Source: a virus
Strand: one strand, 5' to 3'
DNA: 64,000 nucleotides
IMG/VR virus record: IMGVR_UViG_3300008267_005791
Coordinates: 7,159 to 71,158 of that record
In this document: piece after piece, positions 1,600-24,733 of the stretch
Numbering within the stretch: the stretch's first letter is position 1
Layout: every line of letters starts with the position of its first letter
Position numbers and translations under genes: made by a program
The notes under the pieces: model-generated
Seen by the model: the letters and a program-made list of their open reading frames with translations, nothing else
Databases searched by the model: none
Told to the model about the DNA's origin: nothing

Positions 1600-1611
1600 T
1601 AAAATATAATT

Positions 1612-4600: not shown

Positions 4601-5841
4601 ATAGTTCTAATCGTCAATATTATATTAATGAAATTTTAAAAATAAAATCATTAAATAAATTTGTATTTGAGAATAATGTGTGGAAACAAACAATACCACA
4701 AAAAATTAACACATCGTATTCATTATCTGACATAGCAAGTAATGGCGTTAGACTTTCAGAAAATTCAGTACCTTCACCTCAAGTAGGTGTTGATAGGTAT
4801 TATGGTGCCGATATTTCTGATGGGAACGTAAGATTAAAGTTTAATAAATTAACATCTTTACCATCATACATTAGAATTGTTATAATCTCACCATTAGGTG
4901 GTTCTAATTGGGTTATTGATAAATTAAATTGTAATACCCCACCTAGTATAATACCATTCAAATACAGACTTAATGGTGATGGTACAACATTATCAAAAAC
5001 TAATCAATTTGGTTTTGTTTTTAACGATGCAAAGGATTCCATATCATTTTCAAGATGTAACGAGTTTTCACTTTCAAGTCCATACCTAAAAAGGACAGCG
5101 TCTTTACAAATAAAATCACCAATAGGTGAAATACCAATTACATTAAAAATATATAAAAACGACATATTTTTTTCTAGTGTAACATCAACCACAATTCAAA
5201 ACGAATGGTCTTTAGGTGGTACTTTATTATCCAGTACTATTAACTGTGAAAATGTTAATGATTATTATACATTTAGTATTGATTACACACAACCTATAAC
5301 ATATGTTGCTAGAGTATATATTACAACCTCCTTCAGTTCCTATAATACATTGGGTCAATATTTGGGGGTGGGGAATAATTATAATTACATCGCACAAGAA
5401 ATACCAACATTATTACCAACACCAACACCAACAACTACACCGACACCAACACCCGCACCAGCATATTTTATAGCTACTTTAACGGTGGGTAATATTAGAG
5501 AAATAACATGGGGTTACATGTTTAATAATTTTGGGTCAATCACTAACCAATCTATTAATCTTCCTATTGGGGGGACAAACATTATTCTTAAATCGGTGTT
5601 TTGGACGTTAAATTCCGATGGACTAGGAGGTACCTTTACAATTAGAATATCTAACAATTCGAGTACAATAATCCCAAATTGGACAAGATTTGTTGTTCTA
5701 GGTAATTTGGAAGTTTTCCGAGCATCCATGATTGAGGTGGGGTATAAATCTTCTGGTGAATTTTGGGAGTGGTCTCAACCCGTAGCGAGGTCACCATTTG
5801 GTTTAATTAATGGACAAACGAGAACAATAACTTTAACATAA
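1612..5841 (+). CDS. Large putative structural protein (1409 aa) with hydrophobic segment, DUF5977-like repeat and PT linker
   Basis: Long ORF rich in S/T/N/Y. IPAGQEFSCISQLDANNKA resembles DUF5977; Gly/Ala-rich hydrophobic stretch at about aa 370-430; [13 protein letters not shown] near the C-terminus. Confidence 0.6.
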   Translation: MLESSSPIYTFTESDYDSSSPKFITNSDFPRNLRFATKVIPLKLSNKNHGVVTIEIHPSDNIDYGCVSFIHPNGASTSVSATKDGLYVPSDSSLMNVNVFMKDGLRGNTRFYIIVNSDQTKTSDILLINIGLGQIKVKDEVSSVSISYGCPVNVYSYNMGMHVYSPYDSIYSPKLRTILYSFTELSQWTNNTLVYSSRLFNNPSLPYYYGYGNKVYKVGGSLDRAFGTTTYYRTIKKNAFSKVKTTTITDGPRSYYDSIKDESPACVVPKMSDIGKIKEIILSETISQPLTYRYYFGFDNKIRENSSKNTFTLYSFTNKSHYPIIGSVHALIKLGAGLLNGYDYSEFDWRKIVSFQGMSGIMNWKSGNNFAAAGAGVGVASLALNAIIVAGTCVCTYTAASTIMGLNVIPGIGTIIAIGLLAVFIVIKLFKKTTIVTQEDCKIFLHRYCSTPYIETNRKLFNKNGSNATAGFYCDGIYYYYQNYDGIITSKTECSGSFYNYFQEGSTNITYSQQSSITPDNPTLVTLWEHLIVLPYTSGKPEPICKGTIYYSILYEKEVPNNCCGLEIFTPTKITIPAGQEFSCISQLDANNKAKTLLDTSYEYAITHGNYSESIPDEYYGILDSKFTNVSWVEFELLNSSVISESVRLFFDNRDMLGLIVGKTVYFDPSGCQKALEGYYTGAPYGGSNDENPSKILINQPVKTYQVESGKIKTITNETKTITFYPSYISNWFLTDVSISSLLQIKQLMDDSRTFDPTTLENNVKCYQGLIKKTSSDYSVVQDLLLFSGNTYVPAPEGFYLPLIDWIEYNPFYYSKPDEIVLNISENCDTKTIKGFNIIGISKTTNSNTPVHNEVTVEVIVKSVNNKSKTYTATTSSTLTKTLIPYGSFFNSSDIISEITITKILTKSPLNNITYSIGGSYLCPNINNTIIPCGGTFSPNANNSNLSVGYYEMITNIGELTGITSIDFNAGDTPDRFQIYWNDKLVGDSLFVGDSLNSSNRQYYINEILKIKSLNKFVFENNVWKQTIPQKINTSYSLSDIASNGVRLSENSVPSPQVGVDRYYGADISDGNVRLKFNKLTSLPSYIRIVIISPLGGSNWVIDKLNCNTPPSIIPFKYRLNGDGTTLSKTNQFGFVFNDAKDSISFSRCNEFSLSSPYLKRTASLQIKSPIGEIPITLKIYKNDIFFSSVTSTTIQNEWSLGGTLLSSTINCENVNDYYTFSIDYTQPITYVARVYITTSFSSYNTLGQYLGVGNNYNYIAQEIPTLLPTPTPTTTPTPTPAPAYFIATLTVGNIREITWGYMFNNFGSITNQSINLPIGGTNIILKSVFWTLNSDGLGGTFTIRISNNSSTIIPNWTRFVVLGNLEVFRASMIEVGYKSSGEFWEWSQPVARSPFGLINGQTRTITLT

Positions 5842-5870
5842 TTACATAATAAAAAAAAGAATTAAATAAA

Positions 5871-8800
5871 ATGAAACAATTTGATGTAAGATTAAATCAA
5901 CAAACTAGCGATGGTATCTACTCCATTTATTATAATGTAGGAAATGTAAGAAAACTTTCATATATATATAACCCAATAGGGGTTAGCCAAGATTTGGCAA
6001 CTAATATACCTGAATTGAGTTTAACAACTAACACAGGTGTTAGAGTTGAGGTACCCGATAACGCATCATATATTTCTGTGGTGAAAACTAATTTCTCTGA
6101 TAAAGAATTATTAACTTTTAGTAGATATGATAAGTTACCTTTAAGTTCAGGAACTACGGATGGATTTACATATTCTACCACAAATAGTAGTTTTTCTTTT
6201 AAACCCGGGAATTATTATCTTAGAGAAGTTGAGTTAAGTATTAACATTTGGACAAACGAATCATTTGTATTTAAACTACATTTATTTAAAAATGGTGTTG
6301 AAATTAAAGAATCAACTAAAACGATTAGTTCTGTTAAAGACAATACTAACGTTGTTCCCACTGTAAGACCTATTAGTGATTTTCCGGGAAAAATTTATAG
6401 TAGTGGATACGCCCATTGGTTTCTCCAAACTAACCCCTATAAAGAAGATTTTTATTGGGCGCCAGAAACTTTTGAGTGGGGTAGAGACGTATTAGGTCAA
6501 AATAAAGATACAATTTTTATTAGGTCTAATGTTCCTTATGTGGGAACACCTCCGTCTGGTTACACAGTTAAATCTGTACTTACTCTCCCTGGTTCTGCTA
6601 GAAGACAATCCGGTCACGATTTAATTAATGATAACCCCTCCGTTCTAAGTATTGATAATGTAAATGTTAACACTAACGATGTTTACACTTTTAAAATATC
6701 ATCAACCTCTGATTTTGAGTTTTCAAGTAAATTAACCTTTAAAACGATAAGTTCGGGTAGTACATCTACGGAGTTTCGTAAAGACGTTGGACTTGGCAGT
6801 ACGTATGCTAGAGGCGGTATGTACGATTTGAGAAATACTTTATATAGGGCGGATAACCCTAATAGAACTTTTTTTTCTACAGATATTTTATATACCGAAT
6901 GTCCGTCAAATCAAGAATGGATAGTAACACCAACACCGACAAGAACTCCTACAAGAACCCCTAAACCGACAAGAACTCCTACAAGAACCCCTAAACCAAC
7001 AAGGACACCTACAAGGACTCCTAAACCAACACCAACACCAACAAAAACACAAACATCAACTCCAACACAAACACCAACTCCAACACAAACACCACCAACT
7101 ATTGTACCTTTATGTTCTGTTTTATATAACGATAATGACGATAATGTATATTATTACTCTGTTTCAACAAACACATCAATAAAGTTATCCCTAACAAACG
7201 CAAATAGAGGTGGTAACACTTATAAGGGTGGTCCTGATATTGCTCACACAAAAAATAAACTTTGGTTGATGAATGAATCAGGTTTCTCTGAATATAATAT
7301 AAAATTACCTAGTTTTTATTCAAATTATAATAGATTAATAACCTACTCAGATAATTTCTATCCGGATAATGGACTTACAGCAATTTCAGATACCGTTCTT
7401 TTGGGTGTAAATAGTCTCTTTAATCCAAGAAGGGTGGTTGAGATTAATGTGTCGGGGGCAAAAACAACCATTAAAAATAAATTTGAATTAATTGCTAATA
7501 GATATATCACCGGAGATTTTTATAAAACAACCACCAATAAATTTTTAGCCCTTAATACAGATAGGAATAGCGATATTTGTTACTTGAGTCAATGGAATTA
7601 TTTAACAGGTGAACTAGAAGTTGATACTCCACTATCTTTATCTAATAATAGTTGTGATACATATGGTATTTTTGCGAGTGATGATAATATTTATATAACC
7701 TCAATTAACTCTGGTGGTACATCGACTAATCTATATTTAATTAATAAATTGTATCCATATAACGCTGTATATGTTAATACAATTAATAATCTTGTCTTTG
7801 GTGCATCTCAAATACCTGAATGTGTTACATTAGGTTTAGGGGAATTACCTCCAACACCAACACCAACACCTACAAAAACAATTGGTTTATCCCCAACTCC
7901 AACAACAACACCAACACAAACAATTGGTTTATCCCCAACAACAACACCAACACAAACAAAAACGCCAACACAAACAAAAACGCCAACAAAAACACCAACA
8001 CCAACAAGGACTCAAACTTTAACCCCGACTCCAACAACAACACCAACACAAACAATCGATTTATCTCCAACTACAACGCCAACACAAACAAAAACCCCAA
8101 CAAAAACTCCAACACAAACACCAACACAAACACCAACACAAACACCAACACCAACACCAACACTTAAACCTATTTATTTAACAAACGTAACATTAACATT
8201 TTCCAGTTATAATTGGACAAAACCTCCAACCGGTAAATGGACATTATCCAGCCCAATAAATGGGTCATTTAGAATATCTAATTGGGGTGTATATTCTGAA
8301 GGTAATTCTTCATTAGAGACTAATAGTTTTGGGATAAGTACAATTGGATTAGATAATATAGTTGAATATGATTTACCTATGGTGGGAGGAACTAAAGGGA
8401 GAGTTACCTCAAGTGCGGATTACTATCTTAAACGAGACTACGTTACAATATCTATTTGGGATGGTACTATTTGGGTTGACACAAATTATACAGTTAAGGA
8501 TGTTCCATCACCTAATTTTAAATTAAAAACTTTAAGTGGCGATATAATTGTTGTAACTATTATTATTGATTATGGAACTAAAAATTATTTTACACCAACT
8601 ACTAACGCTCGTCTTGGGAATGTCAAAAAACCTAATAATGAATATTCCGGTGGTAATAAATGGCAAGCAACTAATTTAGATGTTACAACATATAGAGATG
8701 GTACACCTCTTATTGATGCCAGTAATTATACTAATTCACAATGGTCATCGTTAATTGAAGGTGCTTGGTGTTACCCAAATGGTAGAATTAATTATGATTA

Positions 8801-10448
8801 TATTGACACATTTGAAAACATACTTTTAGATGATAATTTTGATTACTCCGCAACAACCAATTTATCGTATCAATCAACTATTGATTATTTAGGGAATCCT
8901 CATCAATGGTTGCCACACACAATAAACGAAGGGATTAACCCAATTAAGGTAGTTCCTACAGGATTAACATTTTCAAATTATAATCAAGTTTTAACAAATA
9001 ATTCAATTTCTTTAAATTACAGTGGAGAAAGTGTGTATAACACATTTAATGGTTTAGGGTCAAATAATATTTATTGTTCATTCCTTATCAAATCTTCAAG
9101 GTTAACAAATAATGGTGGAAAATTCTTTAGTCTAAGGGAAAGTAAAGATGGGGATGAAAGAGGTTTAGTGTCTATAATACCAGTAACAGCATCAACATTT
9201 AGATTTGGGTTGTCATTTGGTTCATCATCAATAGTGACTCAAAGTTCCTCAACATATAATTTTAACCAAATATATCTTGTGGTTGTTAAATATAGTGTAT
9301 CAACATCCATTAATTCATCACCAACAACTAGTCTCTATGTATTTAAGGAATTTGACGATTTAACATTAGAACCTTCCATACCAACTATAGGACCATTAAC
9401 CGGAAGTCAAAGTGGAATAACCCCAAATGTTATTAGTTTTAATCAAGGTATTGGTGTAATATCTTTAATTGACGGACTTAGAGTGTCTAATATTTGGAAT
9501 ATTAAAATAACTATTGGTAATAAACCGGAGTACGGTAAACTTTATAATTCATATGCCGTTAATGATACAGCTCATGGTGGTTTAGCACCTGAAGGGTTTC
9601 GTATTCCGACAAGTGTTGAGTGGAATAATTTAATTGATTCTTTAGGTGGTTATTCCTCCGGTGGTAAAATGTGTGAAACGGGTTCAAAACATTGGATTCA
9701 AAATAAATCTTTTGTAACCACCGATGAAGTTGGATTACGTATTTTACCCGCAGGTGTTAGAGGATTCAATAAAGATACAGGTTTTTTTGAATATGAGGAA
9801 TCTTTTAAATATTTAGCGTCATTTTGGTCGTCAAAAGGTTTATTAAATTATAATCAAACAATAACAATAAATTCTGCCAGTAACAATATTGAAATAGATA
9901 GTTATATAGAAAAAACAAATGGTCTCTCTGTTCGTTGTATTGTTGACGATTTTAGTAATTTACCACCAGAATTACCATCTACTGAACCTAATTTGGTTTG
10001 TGTTGAATATGAACTTGGCTCAAGTTATTATGAAGGTACTAAAGCAATAAAAACAAACGAATCAAGTTCTGTTTGGTTACTTAATAATGGTAGGAAGTAC
10101 GGATTTATATCGTGGAACTCTTGGAAGGTATACGGTTTGGATAATTCACCACCTGGCGGAAATAACTACACAAATTCCAATAATTGGACTATTGTAAGTG
10201 TTGAGGACGCTAATTCTATAACTGACGGAGGTTGGGTTGATGAAAATGGTGTTATTAATAATTATGAAGAGCAAACCCCACCAAGAGGAGGTAATGGATG
10301 TTATTTTTATTACCTTAATTGTGAAAAAGTGTTTGTAAATATTTTTGTTGATGTTGGAACATATAAAACGGTTTTATGTTATCCAAACACAACACCAATT
10401 CTCAGTAATTGTTCAATTGTGACAAACTCGGAAATTAATCGTAAATAG
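5871..10448 (+). CDS. Large Pro-Thr-repeat virion/adhesin protein with interrupted FISUMP domain
   Basis: Two long PT/PK/TR linkers. FISUMP motifs [14 protein letters not shown]...GAWCY and [10 protein letters not shown]...GLSVRCI are separated by a beta-sandwich insert. Confidence 0.7.
6926..7100 (+). repeat. Coding tandem repeat (TPTRTPKP / TPTQ) mucin-like linker
   Basis: Repeated ACAAGAACTCCTACAAGAACCCCTAAACC units and CCAACA units. Confidence 0.9.
7847..8163 (+). repeat. Coding Pro-Thr low-complexity repeat with duplicated TIGLSPT units
   Basis: About 105 codons dominated by CCA/ACA/ACT. Confidence 0.9.
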
Positions 10449-10451
10449 GAT

Positions 10452-10494
10452 AAATAACTTTAACATTATTATAGTGTTAAAGTTATTTTTTTTT
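10452..10494 (+). terminator. Intrinsic terminator-like hairpin after the 1525-aa gene
   Basis: AAATAACTTTAACA...TGTTAAAGTTATTT inverted repeat followed by a T run. Confidence 0.7.
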
Positions 10495-10545
10495 ATATTT
10501 ATTTATTTTTTTAAAATTGTATTTTTTAAATAAATTAAGATAAAT

Positions 10546-11793
10546 ATGAAAATTTTTGTGCAAATCGCGTCCTATCGTGACCCCCAACTTATTCCAACAA
10601 TTAAGTCAATGTTGGAGAATGCAAAAAAACCTAAAAATTTAGTAATTGGAATCTGTCGTCAATATCACCCGGAAGACGGGTTTGATGATTTATCTGAATA
10701 CGCAAAAGATAAAAGATTTAGAGTTGTTGATGTTCTATACACCGAATCTAAAGGTGTTTGTTGGGCTAGAAACCAAGTACAACAATTATATAAAGGTGAG
10801 GAATATACCTTACAAATTGATTCTCATATGAGATTTGAGAAGGATTGGGATGACACCTTAATTAAAATGATTAAACAACTTCAAAAGAAAGGATTTAAGA
10901 AACCTTTATTAACAGGATATGTTTCTTCATTTGACCCTGACAATGACCCTGCAGGTAGAGTCAAAGAACCTTGGAGAATGTCGTTTGATAGATTTATACC
11001 AGAAGGGGCTGTCTTCTTCTTACCTGAAACAATTCCGGGGTGGGAAACTCTTACAGAACCCGTTACCTCAAGATTTTATTCTGCACATATGGCATTTACA
11101 TTGGGTCAATTCAGTGTTGAGGTTCAACACGACCCTGAGTTCTATTTCCACGGTGAGGAAATATCAATCGCTGTTAGAGCGTTCACCCACGGATATGATT
11201 TATTTCACCCACACAAAACCGTTATTTGGCACGAATATACTCGTAAGGGTAGAACCAAACAATGGGATGATGATAAAGAGTGGGGTAAGAAAAATGAATT
11301 GTCTCATTTAAAAAATCGTCAATTATTTGGTATGGATGGTGAAGAGGTTACTATGGATTTTAGTTATTACGGTTTTGGGACTGAAAGAACATTAAAAGAT
11401 TATGAGATTTATTCAGGTCTTAAATTTTCAAATAGAGCTGTACAACAATATACATTAGATAAACATTACGCTCCAAATCCAACAATTTATGAAACTGAAG
11501 AAGAATGGTTGGCAAGTTATGCTAGCATCTTTAAGCATTGTATTGATATTGGATTTACTCAAGTCCCGGAAAAGGATTATGAGTTTTGGGTTGTTGCTTT
11601 TCACGATGAAAATGATGAAACGATAAATAGAAAAGATGCTGACATCAATGAGATTAATAATATGATGAGAGACCCTGACGGGTATTGTAAAGTTTGGAGA
11701 GAATTTCAAACAACTCATAAACCAAAATACTGGGTTGTTTGGCCGTTTAGTAAGTCAAAAGGTTGGTGTGAAAGAATAACGGGGAATTTATAA
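10546..11793 (+). CDS. GT60-like (GlcNAc-transferase family) polypeptide/hydroxyproline alpha-GlcNAc transferase
   Basis: N-terminal IFVQIASYRDP, GVCWAR, LQIDSHMRF..DWD, FHGEEI..AVRAFTHGYD and WHEY motifs typical of the Skp1-HyPro GlcNAc transferase family. Confidence 0.85.
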   Translation: MKIFVQIASYRDPQLIPTIKSMLENAKKPKNLVIGICRQYHPEDGFDDLSEYAKDKRFRVVDVLYTESKGVCWARNQVQQLYKGEEYTLQIDSHMRFEKDWDDTLIKMIKQLQKKGFKKPLLTGYVSSFDPDNDPAGRVKEPWRMSFDRFIPEGAVFFLPETIPGWETLTEPVTSRFYSAHMAFTLGQFSVEVQHDPEFYFHGEEISIAVRAFTHGYDLFHPHKTVIWHEYTRKGRTKQWDDDKEWGKKNELSHLKNRQLFGMDGEEVTMDFSYYGFGTERTLKDYEIYSGLKFSNRAVQQYTLDKHYAPNPTIYETEEEWLASYASIFKHCIDIGFTQVPEKDYEFWVVAFHDENDETINRKDADINEINNMMRDPDGYCKVWREFQTTHKPKYWVVWPFSKSKGWCERITGNL

Positions 11794-11796
11794 TAT

Positions 11797-12564
11797 ATGA
11801 AAATTTGTTTTGCAACTGAAGTTACATATCCTAATTATGTAAAAAGACTTAAGTTATCATCATTAAAAGATTTTTTAGATAAAAAATTATATGATTTTGA
11901 TATATCATATTATATTTCAACAAACCTCCCTAATGAGTTTAGTGAATATGAATCAAATAATTTTATTAAAATTTTTAATATTGAGGATTTACGTAAAAAT
12001 AATCTTAAATCAAAAGAGTTAGAATTATTACCGGAAGACCCTCGAGGGTTATACCCATCAAGATATCCTTGGAATTTAAGACGTTTTATCGTTGAGCAAG
12101 CGGCAATTGATGGTTTTGATTATATTATATATGTTGATGCCGATAATCAATTTCACATACATTTAACAGGTGAGGAAATTTTTAATGAATTAAAATTAAA
12201 ATATGAACCAAATACCGTTAAAACAAATTCAGCAATTTTTAAATATTCAAATAAAACACCTGATGATGTTTTTAATTATCACGATGATTATATTAATCAT
12301 TTTAATTTAAATTTTAATGTTGATGATTACGATACAATAGATGGTCCTTGTCAAGTTTTTATTGGTGATACCAATCAAGATATTATTAGATTTGTTGATA
12401 ATTGGCATAAGTACACAACTTTTGGGTATGAAAAAGAATTTGGTTATGGTTACGGTAATAATAAACACGGAAACTTATCTTTTGTTATTCCAATATCCGG
12501 ATTTAAATTAAAATGGGAATCATTCCCATTTTATCCAAATCATAAAGTAGAAGATAGATATTAA
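11797..12564 (+). CDS. Putative GT-A fold glycosyltransferase
   Basis: FDYIIYVDAD (DxD) preceded by YYISTN; lies inside the GT operon. Confidence 0.6.
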   Translation: MKICFATEVTYPNYVKRLKLSSLKDFLDKKLYDFDISYYISTNLPNEFSEYESNNFIKIFNIEDLRKNNLKSKELELLPEDPRGLYPSRYPWNLRRFIVEQAAIDGFDYIIYVDADNQFHIHLTGEEIFNELKLKYEPNTVKTNSAIFKYSNKTPDDVFNYHDDYINHFNLNFNVDDYDTIDGPCQVFIGDTNQDIIRFVDNWHKYTTFGYEKEFGYGYGNNKHGNLSFVIPISGFKLKWESFPFYPNHKVEDRY

Positions 12565-12566
12565 TT

Positions 12567-14084
12567 ATGTTTAAAATATTAGATTATAAATTAGCGGATA
12601 AGGGGTATTACATTAATTTACCATCATCTACTGATAGAAACCAAAAAATAAAAGAATTAATGTTACAATATAACATTGAGGGTTTAAATAGGTTTGAGGC
12701 ATTAACAGATGAAATGATACAATATTCGTGTACAAAAAGTCATTTAGAGATTTTTAAGCAATCATTAAATGAGGATTTGTCTATAATCTTTGTTGGTGAG
12801 GACGATTTTAATATTGAGGACGAATGTTATTTCCCGTATAATAAAATTAAAAAATTTAGTGATGTTCTTATAGATGTTTACACCGATTTACAAAATGTAG
12901 AATGGGATGTGGTTTTATTAGGTTGTAACCCTAAATCACAAATACGTCCAATAACTAATAATCTTGGTGTTGTAGATAAGAGTACCGGAGCTTGGAGTTA
13001 TTTAATTAAGAAAAGAGCTTATGAATATATTTTAGAAAATTCAAATTATAAAAGAGACTACATTGCTATTGACGATTATCTACCTTTATTAAATAGTAAG
13101 GGGTTTATAACTTTAACTACAATACCTTTATGTATTAATCATGCTGTTGGTTTTGAATCTACTTTACAACCCAGAGGTCCTGTTAATTATAATGGATGGA
13201 TTCAAGGTAGTTATCATAAATTTTTATATGATAGATATCCAAATGGTGTTTTTACAGATTTTAAAATAGAAAAAGAGTTAACTGTTGTTGTTGCTGGTCA
13301 TTTTGTAGAAAATCATCAATACTATTTAAATTATTTATTACATAGTTTACCTAACGAGATATTAAAATGTAAATTCATAATACATTATGATAAATCTGGA
13401 AATGAAGATATTAATAGTGAAATTGTTAAGTTAAATGCATATTTTAGAGATGTTAAGTCAGATTTAAATACGGAGTTATCGTTTAGTTTTGGTGGTTTAA
13501 TATCAACAATTGATAATATTTTACCAAAAATAAAAACACCTTACTTTTTATTTTTAGAACACGATTGGGTTTTTTTAGAAAAAGATAATATTAATTTTAG
13601 CGACTTATTAAAAGCATTTAATAATCATAATTTTATAAATGCTGTTTGGTTTGCAAAAGATGATAACATTATGAGAGGGTTTGAAATTGCTAGAGATGTA
13701 GAAGATAAAACAACACCATTTGAAAAAGAAACTAGAGTAACAGAAATTGATTTAGTTACAACTTGTAGGTGGTCTAATAACCCCGTCATTTTTAGAACTT
13801 TAAAAATGGAAGATTGGTATTATAATATAATAAAAAACCAATATGTTGGTGTTTCTCATCAAAGTTGTCACAATGTTGAAGAAACTATGATACCTCATTA
13901 CAGAAAGATTATTAGTGAAAATAAATGGGTTGATATTAGAGATGATTGGGGTACCTTTTTATATGGTGATATAGGTGAAGGTCCTTATGTTGGACATACA
14001 GATGCGTCAAGACGATATCAAGGACAATCAAAATCACAACCTGAAATAAATGGTGAAAACTATATTAAAAATAATCCTCTGTAA
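12567..14084 (+). CDS. Two-domain glycosyltransferase: GT25-like N-terminus plus GT2-like C-terminus
   Basis: YYINL..STDR, CTKSH, VGEDD and AYLI-like/IDDY motifs (GT25); second domain has TPYFLFLEHDW and WSNNP. Confidence 0.75.
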   Translation: MFKILDYKLADKGYYINLPSSTDRNQKIKELMLQYNIEGLNRFEALTDEMIQYSCTKSHLEIFKQSLNEDLSIIFVGEDDFNIEDECYFPYNKIKKFSDVLIDVYTDLQNVEWDVVLLGCNPKSQIRPITNNLGVVDKSTGAWSYLIKKRAYEYILENSNYKRDYIAIDDYLPLLNSKGFITLTTIPLCINHAVGFESTLQPRGPVNYNGWIQGSYHKFLYDRYPNGVFTDFKIEKELTVVVAGHFVENHQYYLNYLLHSLPNEILKCKFIIHYDKSGNEDINSEIVKLNAYFRDVKSDLNTELSFSFGGLISTIDNILPKIKTPYFLFLEHDWVFLEKDNINFSDLLKAFNNHNFINAVWFAKDDNIMRGFEIARDVEDKTTPFEKETRVTEIDLVTTCRWSNNPVIFRTLKMEDWYYNIIKNQYVGVSHQSCHNVEETMIPHYRKIISENKWVDIRDDWGTFLYGDIGEGPYVGHTDASRRYQGQSKSQPEINGENYIKNNPL

Positions 14085-14086
14085 AT

Positions 14087-14704
14087 ATGAATATAAATTT
14101 ATTTACCGGTTGGTTTTATGAACCAAAAAATACAATTAGAGAAGATGAATTTAATTTTTGTTACGAAAAAAATAAAAAATTAAATTTTGGTCAATATTAT
14201 ATAAATAAAACTAAAAGACCAACATATAATTCATTTTTAAACGAAATGAAAAAATACCCTAACGATATTAATATAATTGCAAACCCCGATAATTTTTTTG
14301 ATGATAAATTTTTAAATGATTTACACGAATTATATTCTAATTATACAAAAAAAGAAAAATTATGTTTAGGTTTAACAAGATGGAATTATTTCAACGAGGA
14401 TGATATTAGATATTTTAACGCTAAAGATTCTCAAGATGTTTTTATATTTTATGGTTCAGTTGATTTAAATAATTATGAAGAAATACCTTTAGGTAGACCT
14501 GGGTGTGATAATAGATTTGCGTCGATATTAATATATGATTTAAATATGGACGTATTTAATCCAAGTAAGGACTTAAAATATTATCATTACCATCCATCAG
14601 ATGATTCAACAAGGACTTATTTAAATGAAAAAGGTGAAAGGATTGAATTTGTTATAGGAGCTCACGAATTTGTTTATTTATGTTCATTAAACGACATTAA
14701 GTAA
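14087..14704 (+). CDS. Putative glycosyltransferase-like protein
   Basis: IIANPDNFFD, SQDVFIF, LGRPGCDNR and YHYH motifs; operon context. Confidence 0.5.
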   Translation: MNINLFTGWFYEPKNTIREDEFNFCYEKNKKLNFGQYYINKTKRPTYNSFLNEMKKYPNDINIIANPDNFFDDKFLNDLHELYSNYTKKEKLCLGLTRWNYFNEDDIRYFNAKDSQDVFIFYGSVDLNNYEEIPLGRPGCDNRFASILIYDLNMDVFNPSKDLKYYHYHPSDDSTRTYLNEKGERIEFVIGAHEFVYLCSLNDIK

Positions 14705-14748
14705 CAAAATTGTAAAAATGAAGAATAAGTTAAATAAAATAATGTTAT

Positions 14749-15300
14749 ATGAAATTATTAAACATAATAACACCTTGCAGTAGACCTCAAAATCTACACC
14801 TAATATCAAAAAGTATTAATATCCCAAGTGAAAATTATAGATGGATTATTGTTTTTGATTCATTAACTTTACCCGATAAAAGTTATATACCGGATAATTG
14901 TGAATATTATTTACATAAAAATAAAGATAGTGTATTCGGTAATAGTCAAAGAAATTTTGCATTAGATTTAGTGAAAATGGGACACATTTATTTTAACGAT
15001 GATGATACATTAATTCATCCTGAATTATGGGATAATGTTAAAGATTGTGATGAAGACTTCATAAGTTTTAAACAATCTTATAATGATGGGGGTGTAAGAT
15101 TAAATGGTAATTTAATTAAATTATGTCATATTGATAGTCATAATTTTATAACATCATATGATTTAGTGGAAGATATTAGATTTGAATTACCTCATTATAA
15201 TTCGGATGGAATATTTGCCGTTAAATGTTATGATAAGACAAAAACAAAAAAATATATAAATAAATCTTTATCAATTTATAATCAATTAAATTACATATAA
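14749..15300 (+). CDS. Glycosyltransferase (GT2/GT43-like)
   Basis: IITPCSRP, WIIVFD, QRNFALD and IYFNDDD motifs. Confidence 0.7.
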   Translation: MKLLNIITPCSRPQNLHLISKSINIPSENYRWIIVFDSLTLPDKSYIPDNCEYYLHKNKDSVFGNSQRNFALDLVKMGHIYFNDDDTLIHPELWDNVKDCDEDFISFKQSYNDGGVRLNGNLIKLCHIDSHNFITSYDLVEDIRFELPHYNSDGIFAVKCYDKTKTKKYINKSLSIYNQLNYI

Positions 15301-15314
15301 TATAGTACAAAAAA

Positions 15315-17657: not shown

Positions 17658-17681
17658 ATCATTTATTTTTAAAAATCCAAC

Positions 17682-17689
17682 TATTTATA
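17682..17689 (+). promoter_or_regulatory. TATTTATA putative late promoter
   Basis: Recurrent motif upstream of structural genes (see findings). Confidence 0.45.
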
Positions 17690-17703
17690 ATAAAAAATAA
17701 TAG

Positions 17704-18807
17704 ATGGATTTTTTTATTAAGAAAAACTCGACTTTACCTGTTTTAAAATTCCAAGTCGTAAAAGATGGAAGAAGTGATTACAATAATTTTATGAAAACCA
17801 TAGAGTTATCGTCAATTTTCTTCTCAATGGTAGATGTAGAAACGGGAATACCAAAAATTACTTCAAGACCTGGCGGATTTGTTGAAAAAACCTCAATGGA
17901 CCCCAATTCCGAACCAGAATATTACATATATTATCAATTCACATCCAAAGACACCAATCGTGTTGGTAGATATGAGGGTGAATTTATGTTAAGAAATTCT
18001 GATGGTGTACTTATCTTACCAATTAGAGAAAAACTTAATATTAATGTTCAGGAATCTTTCGTTGCCGATGATTTGGTTTATGATAGTTGTTATGTTTCAG
18101 AATTCCCTTGCTGTGTTAACGAACCAACAGTTTTGGTGGAAAGTATTAATAGAACATATCAATTAGGGAGACAATATGTTCCGGATGAAAGAGACCACAA
18201 ATATTCAATTAATAATCTTTTAAGTGCAACACCTATTAAACTTACCAACAGATATTGGGATGATAATGGATGGTGGGGTAATCAAGGTAATACACCCCAA
18301 TGTGTAGGATATGCTTGGGCTCATTGGTTAGAAGATGGTCCGGTTCCTCAAAGTGGTATCGCTCCAATAATACCCCCAAGAGTTATTTACGAAAACGCTC
18401 AAAAAGTTGATGAATGGGTTGGTGAGAATTATGCCGGAACCTCAGTTAGAGGTGGTGTTAAATATTTAAAAAGTGTTGGTAAAGTTTCTTCTTATTATTG
18501 GGGGTTTAATTTAACATCATTAATTAATTCTGTTTTAAATTTAGGTCCTGTTGTTGTTGGAACTAATTGGTATACCGGAATGTTTTACCCTAATAGAAAT
18601 GGTTTAATTAAAATTAGTGGTCGTATCGCTGGTGGACACGCTTATGTCATCAATGGTGTTAATACGGTAACAAGACTTTTTAGAATTAAAAATAGCTGGG
18701 GACAATCTTGGGGACAATCGGGTCACGCATACATTTCATTCACTGATATGGAAAGATTAATAAGAGAACGAGGTGAAATTTGTTTTGCTATTGAGGTATC
18801 TTCATAA
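17704..18807 (+). CDS. BppU-like N-terminal domain fused to papain-like (C1) cysteine peptidase
   Basis: NQGNTPQCVGYA (Gln oxyanion, catalytic Cys), GGHAY (His), IKNSWG..WG..GHAY (Asn). N-terminal FIKKNSTLP...YQF..DT...GRYEGEF resembles BppU-type Ig domains. Confidence 0.75.
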   Translation: MDFFIKKNSTLPVLKFQVVKDGRSDYNNFMKTIELSSIFFSMVDVETGIPKITSRPGGFVEKTSMDPNSEPEYYIYYQFTSKDTNRVGRYEGEFMLRNSDGVLILPIREKLNINVQESFVADDLVYDSCYVSEFPCCVNEPTVLVESINRTYQLGRQYVPDERDHKYSINNLLSATPIKLTNRYWDDNGWWGNQGNTPQCVGYAWAHWLEDGPVPQSGIAPIIPPRVIYENAQKVDEWVGENYAGTSVRGGVKYLKSVGKVSSYYWGFNLTSLINSVLNLGPVVVGTNWYTGMFYPNRNGLIKISGRIAGGHAYVINGVNTVTRLFRIKNSWGQSWGQSGHAYISFTDMERLIRERGEICFAIEVSS

Positions 18808-18829
18808 TATTATAATTTAAAAAAACAAT

Positions 18830-21800
18830 ATGTTAATAGGTCAAAAATTAGAGGTAGTTAATAATGGTGATGGAAAAATAATTATAAATTTTCAAAATTT
18901 ATCAGATTCTACATGGAGAAGACAAGTAGAGTTAGGACCAAAACAAATAAAAAGTATTTGGTGTATTAAGGGAACTTTTTCTTTCAGTAACGGTACTTCA
19001 GGTTTATTAAAAATTTTATCAGATATTAATTGGCCTCCGGAAGATTTAATTTATGTGAGAATAAAACCAACCCCAACTCCAACCCCAACAAACACCCCAA
19101 CACCAACAAACACCCCAACACCAACTCTCGAGACAATACGAGTTAAAACATATTTAGGGCCGTACACTAATCAAAATCTATCAGGAAATACAGGTAATTT
19201 TTCCGACACTAATCTATGTAATATAAAAGTTGGTTGGTTTGCTTATGGTCCAGAAGTTATAAATCTACCAATTACATCTATTGATTGTGTTAAAGGTGAT
19301 ATAACAATTGATGGTTACTTTATTGAGGACACTGAGTATGTGTTTTCCGAAAATGAATTCTTAAGTAACCCTTTAATTATATCCGCAGTAGATGATAGTG
19401 TCCCATATTTTTTAACAAATAATGTAGAAATTCCAATGTCTGGTGAAACATTATTGGTAAATTATAGTTTAAATTTAGCGGAAAATAGTTCTGATAATAT
19501 TTCAGATAGTGGTGGAATATATTTTAACAATATTGATTATAATGGTATTAATCAATCCAATTATTTTGATTCTATGGTTGGTAAGAATTTTTTACTAACA
19601 ATTAATCAAAATGAATCCGCAGCTGTGTTTAGTGGTGGGTCGGATTCAGTACAAATACTTAATGATGAAAGCGGTTATTTTATAGACACTGTTTCCGAAG
19701 CGGGGATAACATTATTAAATAAAACAATTACCGATTTCATTTTTGATGAAGTCGTATATGTTGACCTCACAATAATTTCTCCTATTAATATCTCAACAGA
19801 AACACCAACTCCAACTCCAACTTCTACTCCAACGATAACTCCAACGATAACTCCAACGATAACAATAACTCCAACACCAGGATTACCTCCTACTCCAACA
19901 CCTACATCAGGATTATTAGTAACTTTAACACCAACTCCAACACCCACATCAGAATTATCAATAACTTTAACACCAACACCTACTCAAACCCAAACAAAAA
20001 CCCCAACACCCACACCAATATTAAATGATTTAGACTTTATATCAATATGGAGGGTATCTTCTCCATCAAATAGTGTCACATTACCTTATGGACCATCCGG
20101 AACATATAGTGGTACGATAGATTGGGGGGATGGAACTACTTCTGTAAATAGATACGCAAATAGAAAACATGTTTATTCAAGTCCCGGAGATTATACAATA
20201 ACAATAAGTGGTGTATTAGTAAGATGGTCATTTAGTAATGGGGTGGATAGATTTAAAATATTATCAATTCTTAATTGGGGATGTTTAAATTTAGGGAGTA
20301 GTATTAATTGTTTTTATGGTTGTGGTAATTTAACATTAAATAATGTTAAGGACACTTTAAATTTAACTAACACAACTAATTTATCTAATTTATTTGTAAA
20401 TTGCGATAGTTTAACGACGATTAATAATGTGAATTTATGGGATGTTAGTAATGTAACTAATATGAATTTCATGTTTAGAAACACAAATTTTAATGACGAT
20501 ATCTCAAATTGGGATGTTAGTAATGTCACCACAATGCGTGCTATGTTTTGGGATTCCCCATTTGACCAACCAATAGGTGATTGGAATGTTGGGAGTGTAA
20601 CTAACATGGGTTTCATGTTTTATTCATCGTTATTTAATCAAGATATATCAAATTGGAATACCGTTAATGTGACCGACATGATTTATATGTTTGGTCTATC
20701 ACCTTTTAACCATCCTATTGGTGATTGGGATGTTAGTAATGTGACCGATATGTCTTATATGTTTTATAACACTCAATTTAACCAATCAATTGGTGATTGG
20801 AGTGTTGGGAATGTGACCACTATGAGAACTATGTTTCGTAATTCACCATTTAACCAACCAATTGGTGATTGGGATGTTAGTAATGTTACCAGTATGCGTA
20901 GTATGTTTTGGGATTCCCCATTTGACCATCCAATAGGTGATTGGAATGTTGGGAATGTAACTAATATGGAATATATGTTCTACAAATCATTATTTAATCA
21001 AGACATTTCAAATTGGAATGTTGGGAATGTAACTAATATGGAATATATGTTCTATGGGACACCATTTAACCAACCAATAGGTGGTTGGGATGTTGGTAAT
21101 GTAACCGATATGAATCAAATGTTTTATGACACCCCATTTAACCAACCAATAGGTGATTGGAATGTTGGTAATGTAATTGATATGAGAGGTATGTTTCGTT
21201 TTTCGTTTTTCAACGAAAGTATTGAGTATTGGAATGTTAGTAATGTTACAACAATGCGTAGTATGTTTTGGGGTTGTCCGTTTAATCAACCAATTAATAG
21301 TTGGAATGTTGGTAATGTAACTGATATGTGGGCAATGTTTTACAACGCATCATTTAACCAACCAATTGGTGATTGGAATGTTGGTAATGTAACTGATATG
21401 TCTTATATGTTTTACAACTCACCATTTAATCAACCAATAGGTGATTGGAATGTTGGTAATGTAACTGATATGAGTCGAATGTTTCATGAGACATCATTTA
21501 ACCAACCAATAGGTGGTTGGAATGTTGGTAATGTAACAGATATGCGTAGTATGTTTTTTAATAGTCAATTTAACCAACCAATTGGTGATTGGGATGTTAG
21601 TAATGTTACCAGTATGTGGGGTATGTTTTATTCAACAGCATTCAATCAAGATATATCAAATTGGGATATTGGTAAGGTTAGAAATATGGAATATATGCTT
21701 AACGGGACTTATATGAGTGTGATAAATTATGATAGTTTATTATTAAAATGGTCGTTATTACCTGTAAAACAATATAATGTTTTGTTAGGTGTGTCAGGAT

Positions 21801-24733
21801 TAAAATATACCCCAACAGAAGCCGACCCAAGAAGTGTACTTAGAAATGATTTTGGTTGGGCGATAATTGGAGATTCAATATCTAATATCTTAACACCAAC
21901 CCCAACACCAGATTTAACAAAAACCCCAACAAAAACGCCTACTCAAACACCGACACAAACAAAGACTCCAACAAAAACTCCAACTCAAACACCTACACCA
22001 ACTAGAACACCAAACATTATTTACGAATCTCCAGTAATCTACCATATACAAAGAGTGTATACAAACGCTTATTTAATTTATTTTACACCAGCAAATAATT
22101 CTCCTTGTAATAGTATTTTACCATACGGGTCGGTGGACAATGTAACATGGTTTAGTGGTACATCTAATAGTTGTGGTTCATACGTCCCAATAACAACCAA
22201 TTTGGATACTTCAGGTACTATATATGTGAAGATTACACAAACCTCAATTTACGGAATAGAGAGTTATTCAAATATCGCTTTATATACAAATGGTTCTTTT
22301 ACAACCTCTTTACCAACACCAACTCCCACACCAACCCCTACAATAACACCAACACAAGGATTACCTTTTCAATATCTTCCCATAATTAATAACATTGTTA
22401 GAACAGGTGGTTCTCAATATAATATATTTGTAACACCAGGAAATTTGGGTACTTGTCAAAATATAATAATATACTATTCTTTTAATAATGTTACTTTTAA
22501 TTATTATGGTGCATATAGTTGCGGTTCTTTATTCTCATTTGATTCATTTAGTTATACAGGGATTGTCTATATTAAAATTGGTCAATCTTATGTTGGTAAT
22601 CAAAACGTTTACTATTCTGACGTATCATTATACTCTAATGGGGTAATAATATCTCCGGTATTGACAACAACATGTCTTTCACCAACAATTACAAGTGTTA
22701 GTAATCCATCAGGTAGTTCATTATTAATTAATTTTACTTTACCATTTCCCTGTAACGGTAATGGAAATAGTGTTCCCGTACAATATTCTTATGATAATAT
22801 TAATTGGCAATATGGTAATATATCTAATGGAGCGACAAATTGTTCATCACCTATTATCTTTAATTCGTTTACAACAACAGGGAATGTCTACGTTAGACTT
22901 TTACAATATTGTTCTGTTAATGCTGCCTTTAGTGCTCCATCAAATGTTGTTATATATACGTTTCCCCAATTAACTCCGACACCAACCTCAACAAAAACCC
23001 CAACTCCAACACTAACATCGACAACCAACCCAATCGTACCAATACCAATTATTACAAACATTACTCAACCAAGTTTATCAAGTTATCAAATTAGTATGGT
23101 AATTAGTAATACGTTAACTTGTAATGTTATGTCTATATATTATTCATTTGACAATATTAGTTGGAGTATGACAAGAAATTTTGCATGTACAACTAATTCC
23201 TCTTTTTTAACATATTTACCAGCGGTGAGTTTTATTTACATAAAAATATATCAACAATATGTGGGTGGAAGTTCAGTATTTTCTGATGTTTATTTATATC
23301 AAAATGGTGAAACGACCATAGTTGTTTCTCCAACACCAACACCAACACCGACTCCAACAATAACTCCAACAATAACCCCAACAAAAACACCGACTCCAAC
23401 GCCAACACCAGCACCAATAATTCAAAATTATGGTAACGATTTTACGTCAACGTGGAGAACATTAGACTCAAACGATACAATAACACTACCCTATATTGCT
23501 GACGGGAACTATAGTGGTACAATAGATTGGGGAGATGGAACTACTTCTGTAAATAGTTACGAAAATAGAGCCCATACTTACTCTAACGCTGGAGACTATA
23601 CAATTAGAGTAACTGGTCAAGTACGTGGTTGGGAATTTAGTAGTGACGCACCTATAGAATATGAAAATGGTAGTGGTTCTGAGTATCCAAATAATTATAA
23701 AATATTATCAATACTTAATTGGGGGAACTTTTCTTTAAGAGGGGGGACAACATCACAATTCGCATATTGTATTAATTTAACGTTAGATTCAGTCAACGGA
23801 GTTTTAAACCTTACAGATTATGATGTAGAAGAAAATATTGGTTATATAACAATTGATGGTTTATTTAGAAATTGTGTTAGTATAACAACAATTAATAATT
23901 TAACATCTTGGAATTTAAGTTATATCACTAGTTTATCCAGCATGTTTTATTACGCAACATTATTTAATCAAGATTTATCGTCTTGGGATGTAAGTAATGT
24001 TACTAATATGTCATATATGTTTGCCGGCACAGATTTCAACAGTTCAATAAGTAATTGGAATGTTGGTAATGTTACAAATATGTCTCAAATGTTTTTTAAC
24101 AACCAATCGTTTAATCAAGACATTTCATTTTGGAATGTGGGTAATGTTACTAATATGTCATATATGTTTGCCGGTTCACAATTTAACAACTTAATAAATA
24201 ATTGGGATGTAAGTAATGTTACTAATATGTCATTTATGTTTCAAAGTTCAAGTTTTAACCAACCAATAAATTCTTGGAATGTTAGTAATGTTACTAATAT
24301 GTCGGGTATGTTTGGATATTCAAATTTTAATCAACTAATAAATTCTTGGAATGTTAGTAATGTTACTAATATGTCAGGTATGTTTGGAATTTCACCTTTT
24401 AACCTACCTCTTAATTCTTGGAATGTCAGTAATGTTACTAATATGGATTATATGTTTGATGGTAACACATTTTTTAATCAAGACATTTCTGATTGGAATA
24501 TAAGTAAGGTTCTATCAATGATTAATATGTTTAGGGACACAACACCAATGAACTCAACAAATTATAATAATTTGTTGATTAAATGGTCACAATTACCTTT
24601 AATTTATAACAATTATACTATGAGATTAGATGTTCCGGGATTTGTATATACATCAATATCCGCCAGTAACGCAAGAAATATTTTAATAAATACATATAAT
24701 TGGAATATAGTTGGAGATACGGGGTCAATATAA
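18830..24733 (+). CDS. BspA/DUF285 repeat surface protein with PKD-like and Fn3-like domains and PT linkers (1967 aa)
   Basis: Many [20 protein letters not shown] repeats; two TIDWGDG PKD-like domains; five PT linkers. Confidence 0.85.
20438..21695 (+). repeat. Tandem ~72-bp (24-aa) DUF285 repeat array 1 (about 17 units)
   Basis: Repeated TTTAACCAACCAAT(A/T)GGTGATTGGAATGTTGGTAATGT motif. Confidence 0.9.
23908..24530 (+). repeat. DUF285 repeat array 2 (about 8 units)
   Basis: Repeated TGGAATGTTAGTAATGTTACTAATATGTC motif. Confidence 0.85.

Follow-up and report, generated by a model that had tools for sequence, protein, structure and literature searches.

The self-glycosylation of mycobacteriophages, the glycosylation systems of giant viruses and the chemistry of the protist GT60 enzymes are already known. 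Mycobacteriophages encode soluble glycosyltransferases (GTs) thought to decorate the phage's structural proteins in the cytoplasm, the acceptors being C-terminal extensions of the capsid and tail-tube proteins, not Pro-Thr (PT) linkers of fibres. Chlorovirus PBCV-1 and giant viruses have their own cytoplasmic glycosylation machinery, and the PBCV-1 protein A064R is a fused GT-GT-methyltransferase. The Skp1 hydroxyproline (Hyp)-N-acetylglucosamine (GlcNAc) transferase Gnt1 is soluble and cytoplasmic. In the Bacteroidota, general O-glycosylation proceeds by assembly on a lipid carrier and en bloc transfer in the periplasm at the motif D(S/T)(A/I/L/V/M/T). Here we describe a block of GT genes in a 64,000-nucleotide stretch of viral DNA (the window; positions 7,159 to 71,158 of IMG/VR record IMGVR_UViG_3300008267_005791), which begins with a GT60 gene, ends with a gene that joins HtrL_YibB and GT2-like domains (HtrL-GT2) and lies between giant proteins with PT linkers. 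The hypervariable cassette bracketed by these two genes, the HtrL-GT2 partner itself, the orthologous bacterial locus and a census of genomes with and without GT60 are new.

The window shares some traits with each of these systems. As in the GT60 enzymes of Dictyostelium and Trypanosoma cruzi and in Skp1 Gnt1, its lead enzyme belongs to PF11397, has a DxH motif, carries no ricin-type lectin domain and has Thr/Pro-rich candidate acceptors; like Gnt1, it is predicted to be soluble and to act in the cytoplasm. Unlike the protist enzymes, it is encoded by phages and bacteria, works with no Golgi and is coupled to HtrL-GT2 and a hypervariable cassette. The likeness to mycobacteriophages lies in soluble, phage-encoded enzymes, but these phages use other GT families, with no GT60 and no bracketed cassette. 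The last open reading frame (ORF) of the block, 780 amino acids (aa) long, resembles PBCV-1 A064R in its GT, GT and methyltransferase fusion, a likeness of domain plan; PBCV-1 is a eukaryotic virus with N-linked atypical glycans on its capsid protein. In contrast to the general O-glycosylation of the Bacteroidota, the probable host phylum, the window enzymes are soluble, are predicted to act stepwise and are paired with PT tracts.

Two further phage systems invite comparison. The jumbo phage XacN1 has the same bracket of GT60 and HtrL-GT2 and many PT-linker proteins near structural genes. [quoted passage not shown] XacN1 differs from the window in phage lineage, in host phylum and in having a carbamoyltransferase in its cassette. 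The GT clusters of jumbo cyanophages, as described in passages of PMC7824862, are likewise sporadic, polymorphic and rich in GTs, with sugar-nucleotide enzymes and carbamoyltransferases, whereas the window cluster has a polypeptide-type GT60 at its head, lacks membrane components, and its presence tracks that of PT-linker proteins. Our literature search found no paper tying GT60/PF11397 or HtrL to phage proteins, PT linkers or bacterial loci; the only mention of GT60 in a phage context that it returned came from a preprint on sponge viromes, which lists viral CAZy genes.

Our preferred reading, to which we give a probability of roughly 60%, is that the block encodes a phage-borne, stepwise, cytoplasmic pathway for mucin-type O-glycosylation of the PT linkers in the phage's own fibre- or adhesin-like proteins. 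This reading starts from three things observed here: to which families the bracket enzymes belong, how the locus is laid out and how often its features co-occur. In such a pathway, the soluble GT60 would transfer the first N-acetylhexosamine (HexNAc) from a uridine diphosphate (UDP)-sugar to Thr residues of the phage Thr/Pro linkers in the host cytoplasm, and the conserved HtrL-GT2 enzyme would build the conserved inner part of the chain. The genes between the brackets would then add lineage-specific sugars and caps, in the window through four small GT-like genes and a TylF domain, and the outcome would be linkers that carry a variable glycan 'serotype' onto the particle. The cytoplasmic setting would follow from the absence of signal and membrane segments in the enzymes and the PT proteins: an N-terminal hydrophobic segment was found in none of the six operon enzymes and none of the four flanking proteins. 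An earlier note on the window, made from its letters, had called the giant flanking proteins secreted-looking, which in the Sec sense they are not.

The six genes of the block, all on the + strand, are as follows:

10546..11793, + strand: GT60/PF11397 glycosyltransferase, 415 aa, soluble, DxH motif at D92-S93-H94; predicted initiating polypeptide HexNAc-transferase
11797..12564, + strand: 255-aa cassette gene, possible GT-A enzyme (GT8 or nucleotide-diphospho-sugar transferase-like), a lead only (Atlas language-model leads at 0.94-0.95)
12567..14084, + strand: 505-aa cassette gene with a GT25-like N-terminal half (GT25 below cut-off; the homologue in locus L071 passes)
14087..14704, + strand: 205-aa cassette gene with a weak GT7C/GT2-like lead, from the language model only
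14749..15300, + strand: 183-aa cassette gene, probably a small GT-A enzyme (GT2-like), with a weak homologue in locus L065
15315..17657, + strand: 780-aa three-part enzyme with a TylF O-methyltransferase (residues 18-200), HtrL_YibB (225-477) and a GT2-like domain (about 515-780)

The block (10546-17657) has intergenic gaps of 2-44 nt and no terminator-like site between 10300 and 19000, where shuffled sequence gave a mean of 2.4. Its description as a tight six-gene operon holds. It is flanked upstream by ORFs of 1409 and 1525 aa and downstream by a 367-aa and then a 1967-aa ORF.

The first enzyme is the most firmly assigned. A profile search, which the earlier note had suggested as a check, confirmed PF11397 (E 3.2e-69; score 234.5 bits, cut-off 21), covering model positions 2-43 and 95-350 of 352, and no residue of the family's DxH motif (D92-S93-H94) varies among the 10 aligned phage sequences. 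PF11397 is the sole Pfam match in the 415-aa protein, which has no C-terminal ricin-type lectin domain. Identity is 76-98% across the 80 IMG/VR loci compared below and about 70% to genes of Saprospiraceae. According to passages of PMC8724618 and PMC7185993 and the abstract of PMC3769586, those GT60 enzymes that have been characterised initiate mucin-type glycans on Ser/Thr-rich domains, acting as polypeptide alpha-GlcNAc-transferases. GT27 and GT60 both have DxH where other enzymes have DxD (in passages of PMC7185993), and the missing ricin-type lectin domain separates GT60 from GT27 (likewise in PMC8724618). Neither sequence nor profile searches returned a relative with a solved structure for GT60 or for the HtrL protein. 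We also considered Skp1-like, Hyp-linked glycosylation. The prolyl hydroxylase family PF13640 was found in none of five GT60 jumbo genomes, with a control positive in two genomes, which makes a Hyp linkage unlikely in the window lineage.

The 780-aa enzyme carries TylF (PF05711; residues 18-200; E 9.9e-28, 97.5 bits against a cut-off of 23), which bears out the O-methyltransferase assigned to the operon, followed by HtrL_YibB (PF09612; residues 225-477; E 1.3e-19, 71.3 bits against 24.1). Its C-terminal third is GT2-like by way of a 62%-identical bacterial homologue that matches PF00535, and the residues E605-D606-D607 of this domain are invariant. All 32 aligned homologues have both the HtrL domain and the C-terminal GT2-like domain, and 13 of the 32 have an N-terminal methyltransferase, of TylF or FkbM type. 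TylF capping would therefore be specific to the window copy. Of the scheme in which GT25, GT2 and HtrL enzymes would extend the chain and TylF would cap it, what stands is a conserved core of GT60 and HtrL-GT2; the methyltransferase domain is optional.

The four genes in between are less well defined. For the 255-aa protein there was no Pfam match up to E 10 and no PHROG match, and homologues occur in just 3 of the 80 loci; for the 205-aa protein there was no Pfam match up to E 10 and no homologue in the 80 loci. Atlas returned unnamed viral clusters plus weak named leads for both. The GT25 match (PF01755) of the 505-aa protein reaches 20.8 bits against a cut-off of 24, and its 52%-identical homologue in L071 reaches 30.1 bits; its C-terminal half gave no match in profile searches. 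The 183-aa protein is 27% identical to the GT2_4-matching part of a 492-aa protein in L065 (GT43 at E 0.18). Among GT-like domains, direct matches above cut-off are limited to GT60 and HtrL, and the count of about eight given earlier is not confirmed.

We compared the layout of the block in the best 80 of 432 IMG/VR relatives of the GT60 (76-98% identical), which form one lineage. In all 80, one or more variable PT proteins are followed by GT60, a cassette of one to eight genes, the HtrL gene (in 70 of 80 loci), a gene with a conserved N-terminal domain that we call the anchor-domain gene and usually polB. Clustered at 30% identity, the 369 cassette ORFs give 108 clusters, and 40 gene orders occur among 71 bounded loci. 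By Pfam, the cassettes hold GT families (GT2, GT25, GT10, GT11, GT34/DUF273, GT7C, GT31, the PLOD GT domain, RXYLT1 and extra HtrL copies), modifying enzymes (FkbM/CmcI-type methyltransferases, carbamoyltransferases, GNAT and hexapeptide acetyltransferases) and sugar-nucleotide enzymes (DegT aminotransferases, an epimerase and a HAD-nucleotidyltransferase). GT60 and HtrL-GT2 thus bracket a hypervariable cassette, and since the brackets persist while the genes between them are shuffled, the conserved core is the two brackets and not the whole operon. Among the 108 cassette representatives, 106 have no hydrophobic stretch and two have a single one, and their Pfam matches include no phosphoglycosyltransferase, flippase, polymerase, ligase or export family. 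The complete relative G001 has three multi-transmembrane ORFs, a DUF445 protein, a glycine transporter and a third with no assignment, none of them Wzx-, Wzy- or ligase-like. As a separate observation, several cassette families in loci L003-L082 are best known from eukaryotic protein and glycan pathways, namely the GT10/GT11 fucosyltransferases, PLOD, RXYLT1 and the GT7/GT31 galactosyltransferases.

The candidate acceptors are the PT linkers. PT runs were called with a sliding residue-window rule, and we call a protein PT-rich if at least 20 of its residues lie in such runs. The rule was adopted because a strict (TP)4 DNA pattern proved too narrow: the relative G006 scored 0 with it despite 16 proteins with TPTVTPT-type linkers. 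In the window, the three giant ORFs have 1, 7 and 9 runs, which merge into nine zones, in agreement with the nine linkers that had been listed in these proteins:

1612..5841, + strand: 1409-aa modular protein with one PT linker (residues 1265-1284) and a weak DUF5977 match
5404..5463, + strand: PT zone 1 (residue-window rule, as for all zones)
5871..10448, + strand: 1525-aa adhesin-like protein directly upstream of GT60, with Fib_succ_major (PF09603, E 8e-18) and two long PT zones
6924..7103, + strand: PT zone 2, 60 aa of repeats
7842..8171, + strand: PT zone 3, 110 aa
17704..18807, + strand: 367-aa anchor-domain protein, a conserved 140-aa N-terminal beta-sandwich plus a papain-like peptidase (profile and structure model)
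18830..24733, + strand: 1967-aa protein with DUF285/BspA-type repeats, a PKD domain (profile matches) and six PT zones
19061..19129, + strand: PT zone 4
19793..20017, + strand: PT zone 5
21923..22012, + strand: PT zone 6
22301..22357, + strand: PT zone 7, also found with the strict (TP)4 pattern
22973..23011, + strand: PT zone 8
23324..23419, + strand: PT zone 9, also found with the strict (TP)4 pattern

Together the zones make up 382 residues (Thr 44%, Pro 29%, Ser 3%). The strict (Thr-Pro)4 codon pattern has 3 matches in the window and none in 100 shuffles, and the whole 71-kb contig holds one further ORF with PT runs, directly upstream of the window. In 69 of the 80 loci (43 of 53 distinct genes), GT60 has a PT-rich gene directly upstream; the anchor-domain gene is PT-rich in 36 of 71, compared with 72 of 883 for all other ORFs. 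The 1409-aa protein has homologues of 60-70% identity in loci L015 and L044. It also has two neighbouring hydrophobic, Gly/Ala-rich segments in its middle (residues 370-418; 2719-2865), which is odd for a fibre-like protein and might represent a membrane insertion or a fusion-like element.

Whether GT60 co-occurs with PT linkers across related phages was another check that the earlier note had proposed, and the pairing was indeed found in four phage groups and several bacterial clades. Among 50,697 phage records, GT60 matches occur in four (XacN1, Xoo-sp13, CM1 and RAS14), all of them XacN1-type jumbo phages. All 4 of these cultured phages match the strict (TP)4 pattern, as against 0 of 6 GT60-less jumbo phages related by polB. 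The PT-run content of individual genomes was:

XacN1: GT60 present; 22 proteins with runs (16 true PT linkers), 1014 residues
G006: GT60 present; 16 proteins with runs, 487 residues
G001: GT60 present; 13 proteins with runs, 1076 residues
RsoM2USA: GT60 absent; 4 short runs, 41 residues
Xanthomonas phage XbC2: GT60 absent; no PT-type runs, 20 residues, poly-Ser only

XbC2 and XacN1 have the same host genus and opposite status for both GT60 and PT linkers. In XacN1, the brackets are ORF334, a GT60 48% identical to that of the window, and ORF330, an HtrL-GT2 gene 38% identical over 560 aa to that of Saprospiraceae, and the PT proteins adjoin genes for a baseplate wedge, a tail-sheath stabiliser and head completion. 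In G001, the PT proteins are of Fib_succ_major, SprB-repeat and DUF285/BspA-LRR types, with one tail-fibre-connector match; a short run in PhoH is an exception.

The pairing extends to other phages. In loci L120 and L122, a solitary GT60 comes directly after the gene for a 402-aa 'beads-on-a-string' protein that carries three (PT)n linkers, and in the crAss-like regions L227, L232 and L246, GT60 stands amid muzzle-type tail proteins with PT linkers (crAss_MUZ_C, 60.5 bits). These crAss-like regions lie inside bacterial genomes or were binned with them, that of L227 at 672-15867 of a 3-Mb Saprospiraceae contig. The region holds a weak SU10-adaptor match, a 1845-aa PT-linker protein with a weak match to the muzzle N-terminus, a 673-aa protein of which PT runs make up 41%, GT60, a double GT32-like enzyme of 1087 aa and a protein that combines a muzzle C-terminal domain with a PT linker.

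Orthologues of both bracket enzymes are also encoded by bacteria. In 24 of 48 bacterial loci, GT60 lies next to HtrL-GT2, and the window enzymes are about 70% (GT60) and 62% (HtrL-GT2) identical to a Saprospiraceae pair. A Pro/Thr/Ser-rich protein lies by the pair in Saprospiraceae, Lewinellaceae, Cytophagales (including Jiulongibacter sediminis), Gemmatimonadaceae and a metagenome-assembled genome (MAG) of Verrucomicrobia; in L214 and L217, it bears a type IX secretion system (T9SS) sorting domain. The Jiulongibacter locus encodes GT60, a carbamoyltransferase and a 780-aa FkbM-HtrL-GT2 protein, an architecture like that of the last operon ORF of the window. In a quick tree of GT60 sequences, two rows of which are long branches, each of the four phage groups falls into another starred clade with bacterial neighbours of its own: the window lineage with Saprospiraceae and Lewinellaceae, the crAss-like sequences with Cytophagales and the XacN1 type with Burkholderiales-type genes. 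The module of the window was probably taken from Bacteroidota hosts, in which GT60 and HtrL-GT2 adjoin an exported Pro/Thr/Ser-rich protein. A wider and more tentative reading, which we put at rather less than even odds, is that the two enzymes may form the core of an undescribed, stepwise, cytoplasmic mucin-type O-glycosylation pathway in several bacterial phyla (Bacteroidota, Gemmatimonadota, Verrucomicrobiota and others) and in no fewer than four groups of phages (both jumbo lineages, one group with small genomes and the crAss-like phages); it would modify bacterial exported Pro/Thr/Ser-rich proteins before export and, in jumbo phages, would have become a shuffled 'glycan serotype island' acting on fibre PT linkers.

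Several details of the bacterial loci deserve mention. L223 (Jiulongibacter sediminis, 7942-15145) and L214 (Saprospiraceae MAG, 6349-13092) share a divergent layout around the PT/ST-rich protein. On the side of this protein lies a second, short GT60 paralogue in L223 and a sulfotransferase in L214; on the other side are GT60, a carbamoyltransferase (L223 only) and the HtrL-GT2 gene, which has an FkbM methyltransferase domain in L223. The bacterial PT proteins have an RRxxLK-like N-terminus by eye only, and NCBIfam gave no match to a twin-arginine translocation (Tat) signal; a Tat route following cytoplasmic glycosylation would be unusual for T9SS cargo. In L231 (Gemmatimonadaceae MAG), a gene upstream of GT60 (9230-9955) encodes a weak PqqD-like (peptide-chaperone) domain and a Thr/Pro/Ser-rich tail with QTPMITPSVS repeats, a fusion that hints at a recognition element for the glycosylated tail, like those of ribosomally synthesized and post-translationally modified peptides. 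Finally, the quick tree places GT60s of Burkholderiales, Oxalobacteraceae and Neisseriaceae inside the group of XacN1-type phage sequences; these bacterial GT60s have neither an HtrL-GT2 partner nor adjacent PT proteins. Because both neighbours are missing, these GT60s may be a transferred and repurposed branch.

It is unlikely that the cassette instead remodels the host lipopolysaccharide (LPS), capsule or O-antigen, for example against superinfection, with the PT proteins as unrelated neighbours. GT25 and HtrL_YibB are named after LPS loci, HtrL_YibB figures in papers on Acinetobacter outer-core loci, the polymorphic GT clusters of jumbo cyanophages were interpreted as host-surface modification (Iyer et al. 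2021, in passages of PMC7824862), and the hypervariability of the cassette resembles that of O-antigen loci. However, a surface-polysaccharide pathway would be expected to leave other traces than those described above: there is no phosphoglycosyltransferase, flippase, polymerase or ligase, none of the six operon proteins has a hydrophobic segment, and the characterised family members of the lead enzyme act on polypeptides. The bracket pair is, moreover, orthologous to a bacterial pair beside a PT/ST-rich protein, and the PT-linker load tracks the presence of GT60 across jumbo phages.

The enzymes could also glycosylate Pro/Thr-rich surface proteins of the host, such as T9SS adhesins (possible receptors), and so alter the surface of the infected cell, which we regard as improbable. 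Such targets would suit an origin in which the orthologous bacterial module stands beside exported PT/ST-rich T9SS proteins, with phage copies 62-70% identical to those of Saprospiraceae. They would not account for the 13-22 PT-run proteins that the GT60 jumbo phages themselves encode, almost none of which are found in GT60-less relatives, nor for the PT-rich phage gene that flanks GT60 in 69 of 80 loci, nor for the glycoproteins reported, in passages of PMC5852040, in XacN1 virions. Phage and host PT proteins could both be targets.

The anchor-domain gene (17704-18807) bears on whether the linkers reach the particle. Its first 140 residues are 79-95% conserved across relatives, in most of which this N-domain runs directly into poly-Thr, Cys/Pro and long Thr/Pro tracts and ends in a small variable domain. 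The window copy has a papain-like peptidase in place of the PT linker, and the same peptidase terminates PT proteins of 946-1167 aa upstream of GT60 in other loci. In the predicted structure, the mean predicted local distance difference test (pLDDT) score is 49 overall and about 70 for the N-domain (residues 1-120), whose model matches the TP901-1 baseplate (4v96_AA, Z 7.6 over 102 aa), the N-domain of BppU (3uh8_A, Z 6.9) and other phage baseplate chains (Z 6.5-6.9), with unrelated Ig domains scoring nearly as well. BFVD returned BppU, tail-fibre and baseplate proteins for it at E about 1e-4, Pfam gave no PF10651 match in the ORF, and Foldseek against the PDB returned only cathepsins, on the papain-like half. 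On the basis of these fold comparisons, it is plausible that the product is a baseplate-anchored, head-swapping fibre protein. Across loci L003-L082, the N-domain swaps partners between the papain-like peptidase, poly-Thr or PT linkers with end domains, and LRR-like repeats. XacN1 too encodes a papain-family protease (ORF382).

A number of points weigh against glycosylation of the phage's own linkers. Many proteins have PT linkers with no glycosylation, so that the co-occurrence with GT60 could stem from shared ancestry or host type. The counts from the 80 loci were inherited within a single lineage and are phylogenetically dependent, as are those from the four cultured GT60 phages, which form one clade. 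In G001, the 13 PT proteins are scattered over the 322-kb genome, which makes the adjacency of GT60 and PT genes weak by itself; PT proteins are not confined to the surroundings of the operon, where the earlier note had placed them. In the XacN1-type set, a PT-run protein within 10 kb was found in just 9 of 18 loci and the strict pattern in just 9 of 18 records, mostly short fragments. G022, a complete phage of 61 kb, encodes a distant homologue of GT60 and has a single 10-residue PT run. In bacteria, just 6 of 77 genes adjacent to GT60, versus 12 of 412 other genes, are PT-rich (Fisher p = 0.048, uncorrected for relatedness, with four loci that had no called GT60 ORF dropped), and no Burkholderiales-type locus has an adjacent PT-rich gene. 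Among PHROGs, the window PT proteins match only families of 'unknown function', and their place on the virion is a prediction. Unrelated plexin and filamin Ig domains match the N-domain of the anchor-domain protein at Z 6-7, close to the baseplate matches. The DNA polymerase gene adjoins the block in the window and is a few kb away in XacN1. In the passages of PMC5852040, the glycoprotein bands of XacN1 are not assigned to particular proteins.

Some of these exceptions, namely G022, the Burkholderiales loci and those nine XacN1-type loci, out of 18, in which no PT protein lies within 10 kb, are what one would expect if PT linkers and GT60 were merely co-inherited, or acquired from the same host groups, and GT60 acted on an unrelated acceptor. 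Adhesin domains of Bacteroidota type (SprB, Fib_succ_major, BspA-LRR), in addition, commonly have PT linkers as flexible spacers. Nevertheless, we find this explanation unlikely: XacN1 and XbC2 differ fully in GT60 and PT linkers in spite of their common host genus, and the pairing recurs in four phage groups from separate clades of the GT60 tree and in bacteria of at least three phyla.

That the block hypermodifies phage DNA with glycans, in the manner of GT clusters acting on 5-hydroxymethylpyrimidines, is very improbable, since no 5-methylpyrimidine dioxygenase or hydroxymethylating ThyA match was found among the window ORFs, Tet_JBP was found in 0 of 5 related genomes (a search with no positive control), 4 of 5 relatives have a ThyA-like gene that, in the two cases where both positions are known, is over 100 kb away from the block, and the bacterial orthologues stand in protein-export and not DNA contexts. 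The ThyA of the relatives also keeps, in ...HLYSNH..., what we take to be the Asn of dUMP-specific enzymes. The position of the block beside the DNA polymerase gene is what speaks for this function; phage GT clusters beside polymerases and structural genes glycosylate 5-hydroxymethylcytosine according to the abstract and passages of Pyle et al. (bioRxiv 10.1101/2023.12.21.572611), in which GT60, GT25 and HtrL are named 0 times. In G001, the thymidylate-synthase-family gene (G001:C1:5332-7607) was matched in three pieces, whereas three other relatives have continuous frames of 413-429 aa, which suggests an intron, an intein or a broken gene.

If the phage does glycosylate its own PT linkers through this pathway, mucin-type protein glycosylation would not be limited to eukaryotes, and a 'protist' family would operate in bacteria and phages. 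Large environmental phages would wear variable sugar coats on their fibres, with a bearing on host recognition, protease resistance, sticking to polysaccharide matrices and the immune recognition of therapeutic phages, and an arms race over phage surface glycans would be implied. The unexplained glycoprotein bands of XacN1 would receive a concrete explanation, and HtrL_YibB, a family with no known function, would gain a role. The two-enzyme core, compact and soluble, would lend itself to tests in E. coli with a defined Pro-Thr peptide.

As for the phage itself, the whole record spans 71,158 bases and is rated 24% complete by CheckV, and the GC content of the window is about 31%. The window encodes a family-B DNA polymerase, helicases, DnaB, a UvsX-like recombinase, a single-stranded DNA-binding protein, ribonucleotide reductase, a tail tube, a baseplate hub and wedge and a 1267-aa tail sheath. 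Because of this gene content and of close IMG/VR relatives of 318-322 kb rated complete, we take the record to be a fragment of an uncultured jumbo myophage. The label 'jumbo' in the earlier note is therefore apt, but 'T4-like' was not borne out: the best polB matches among cultured phages are those of Salinibacter and Nostoc phages, at 23-30% identity, and no DNA near-identical to the window was found in cultured phages. In the tail sheath (35949-39752), about 950 residues at the N-terminus have no assignment, and the sheath profiles match only residues 958-1265 of the 1267.

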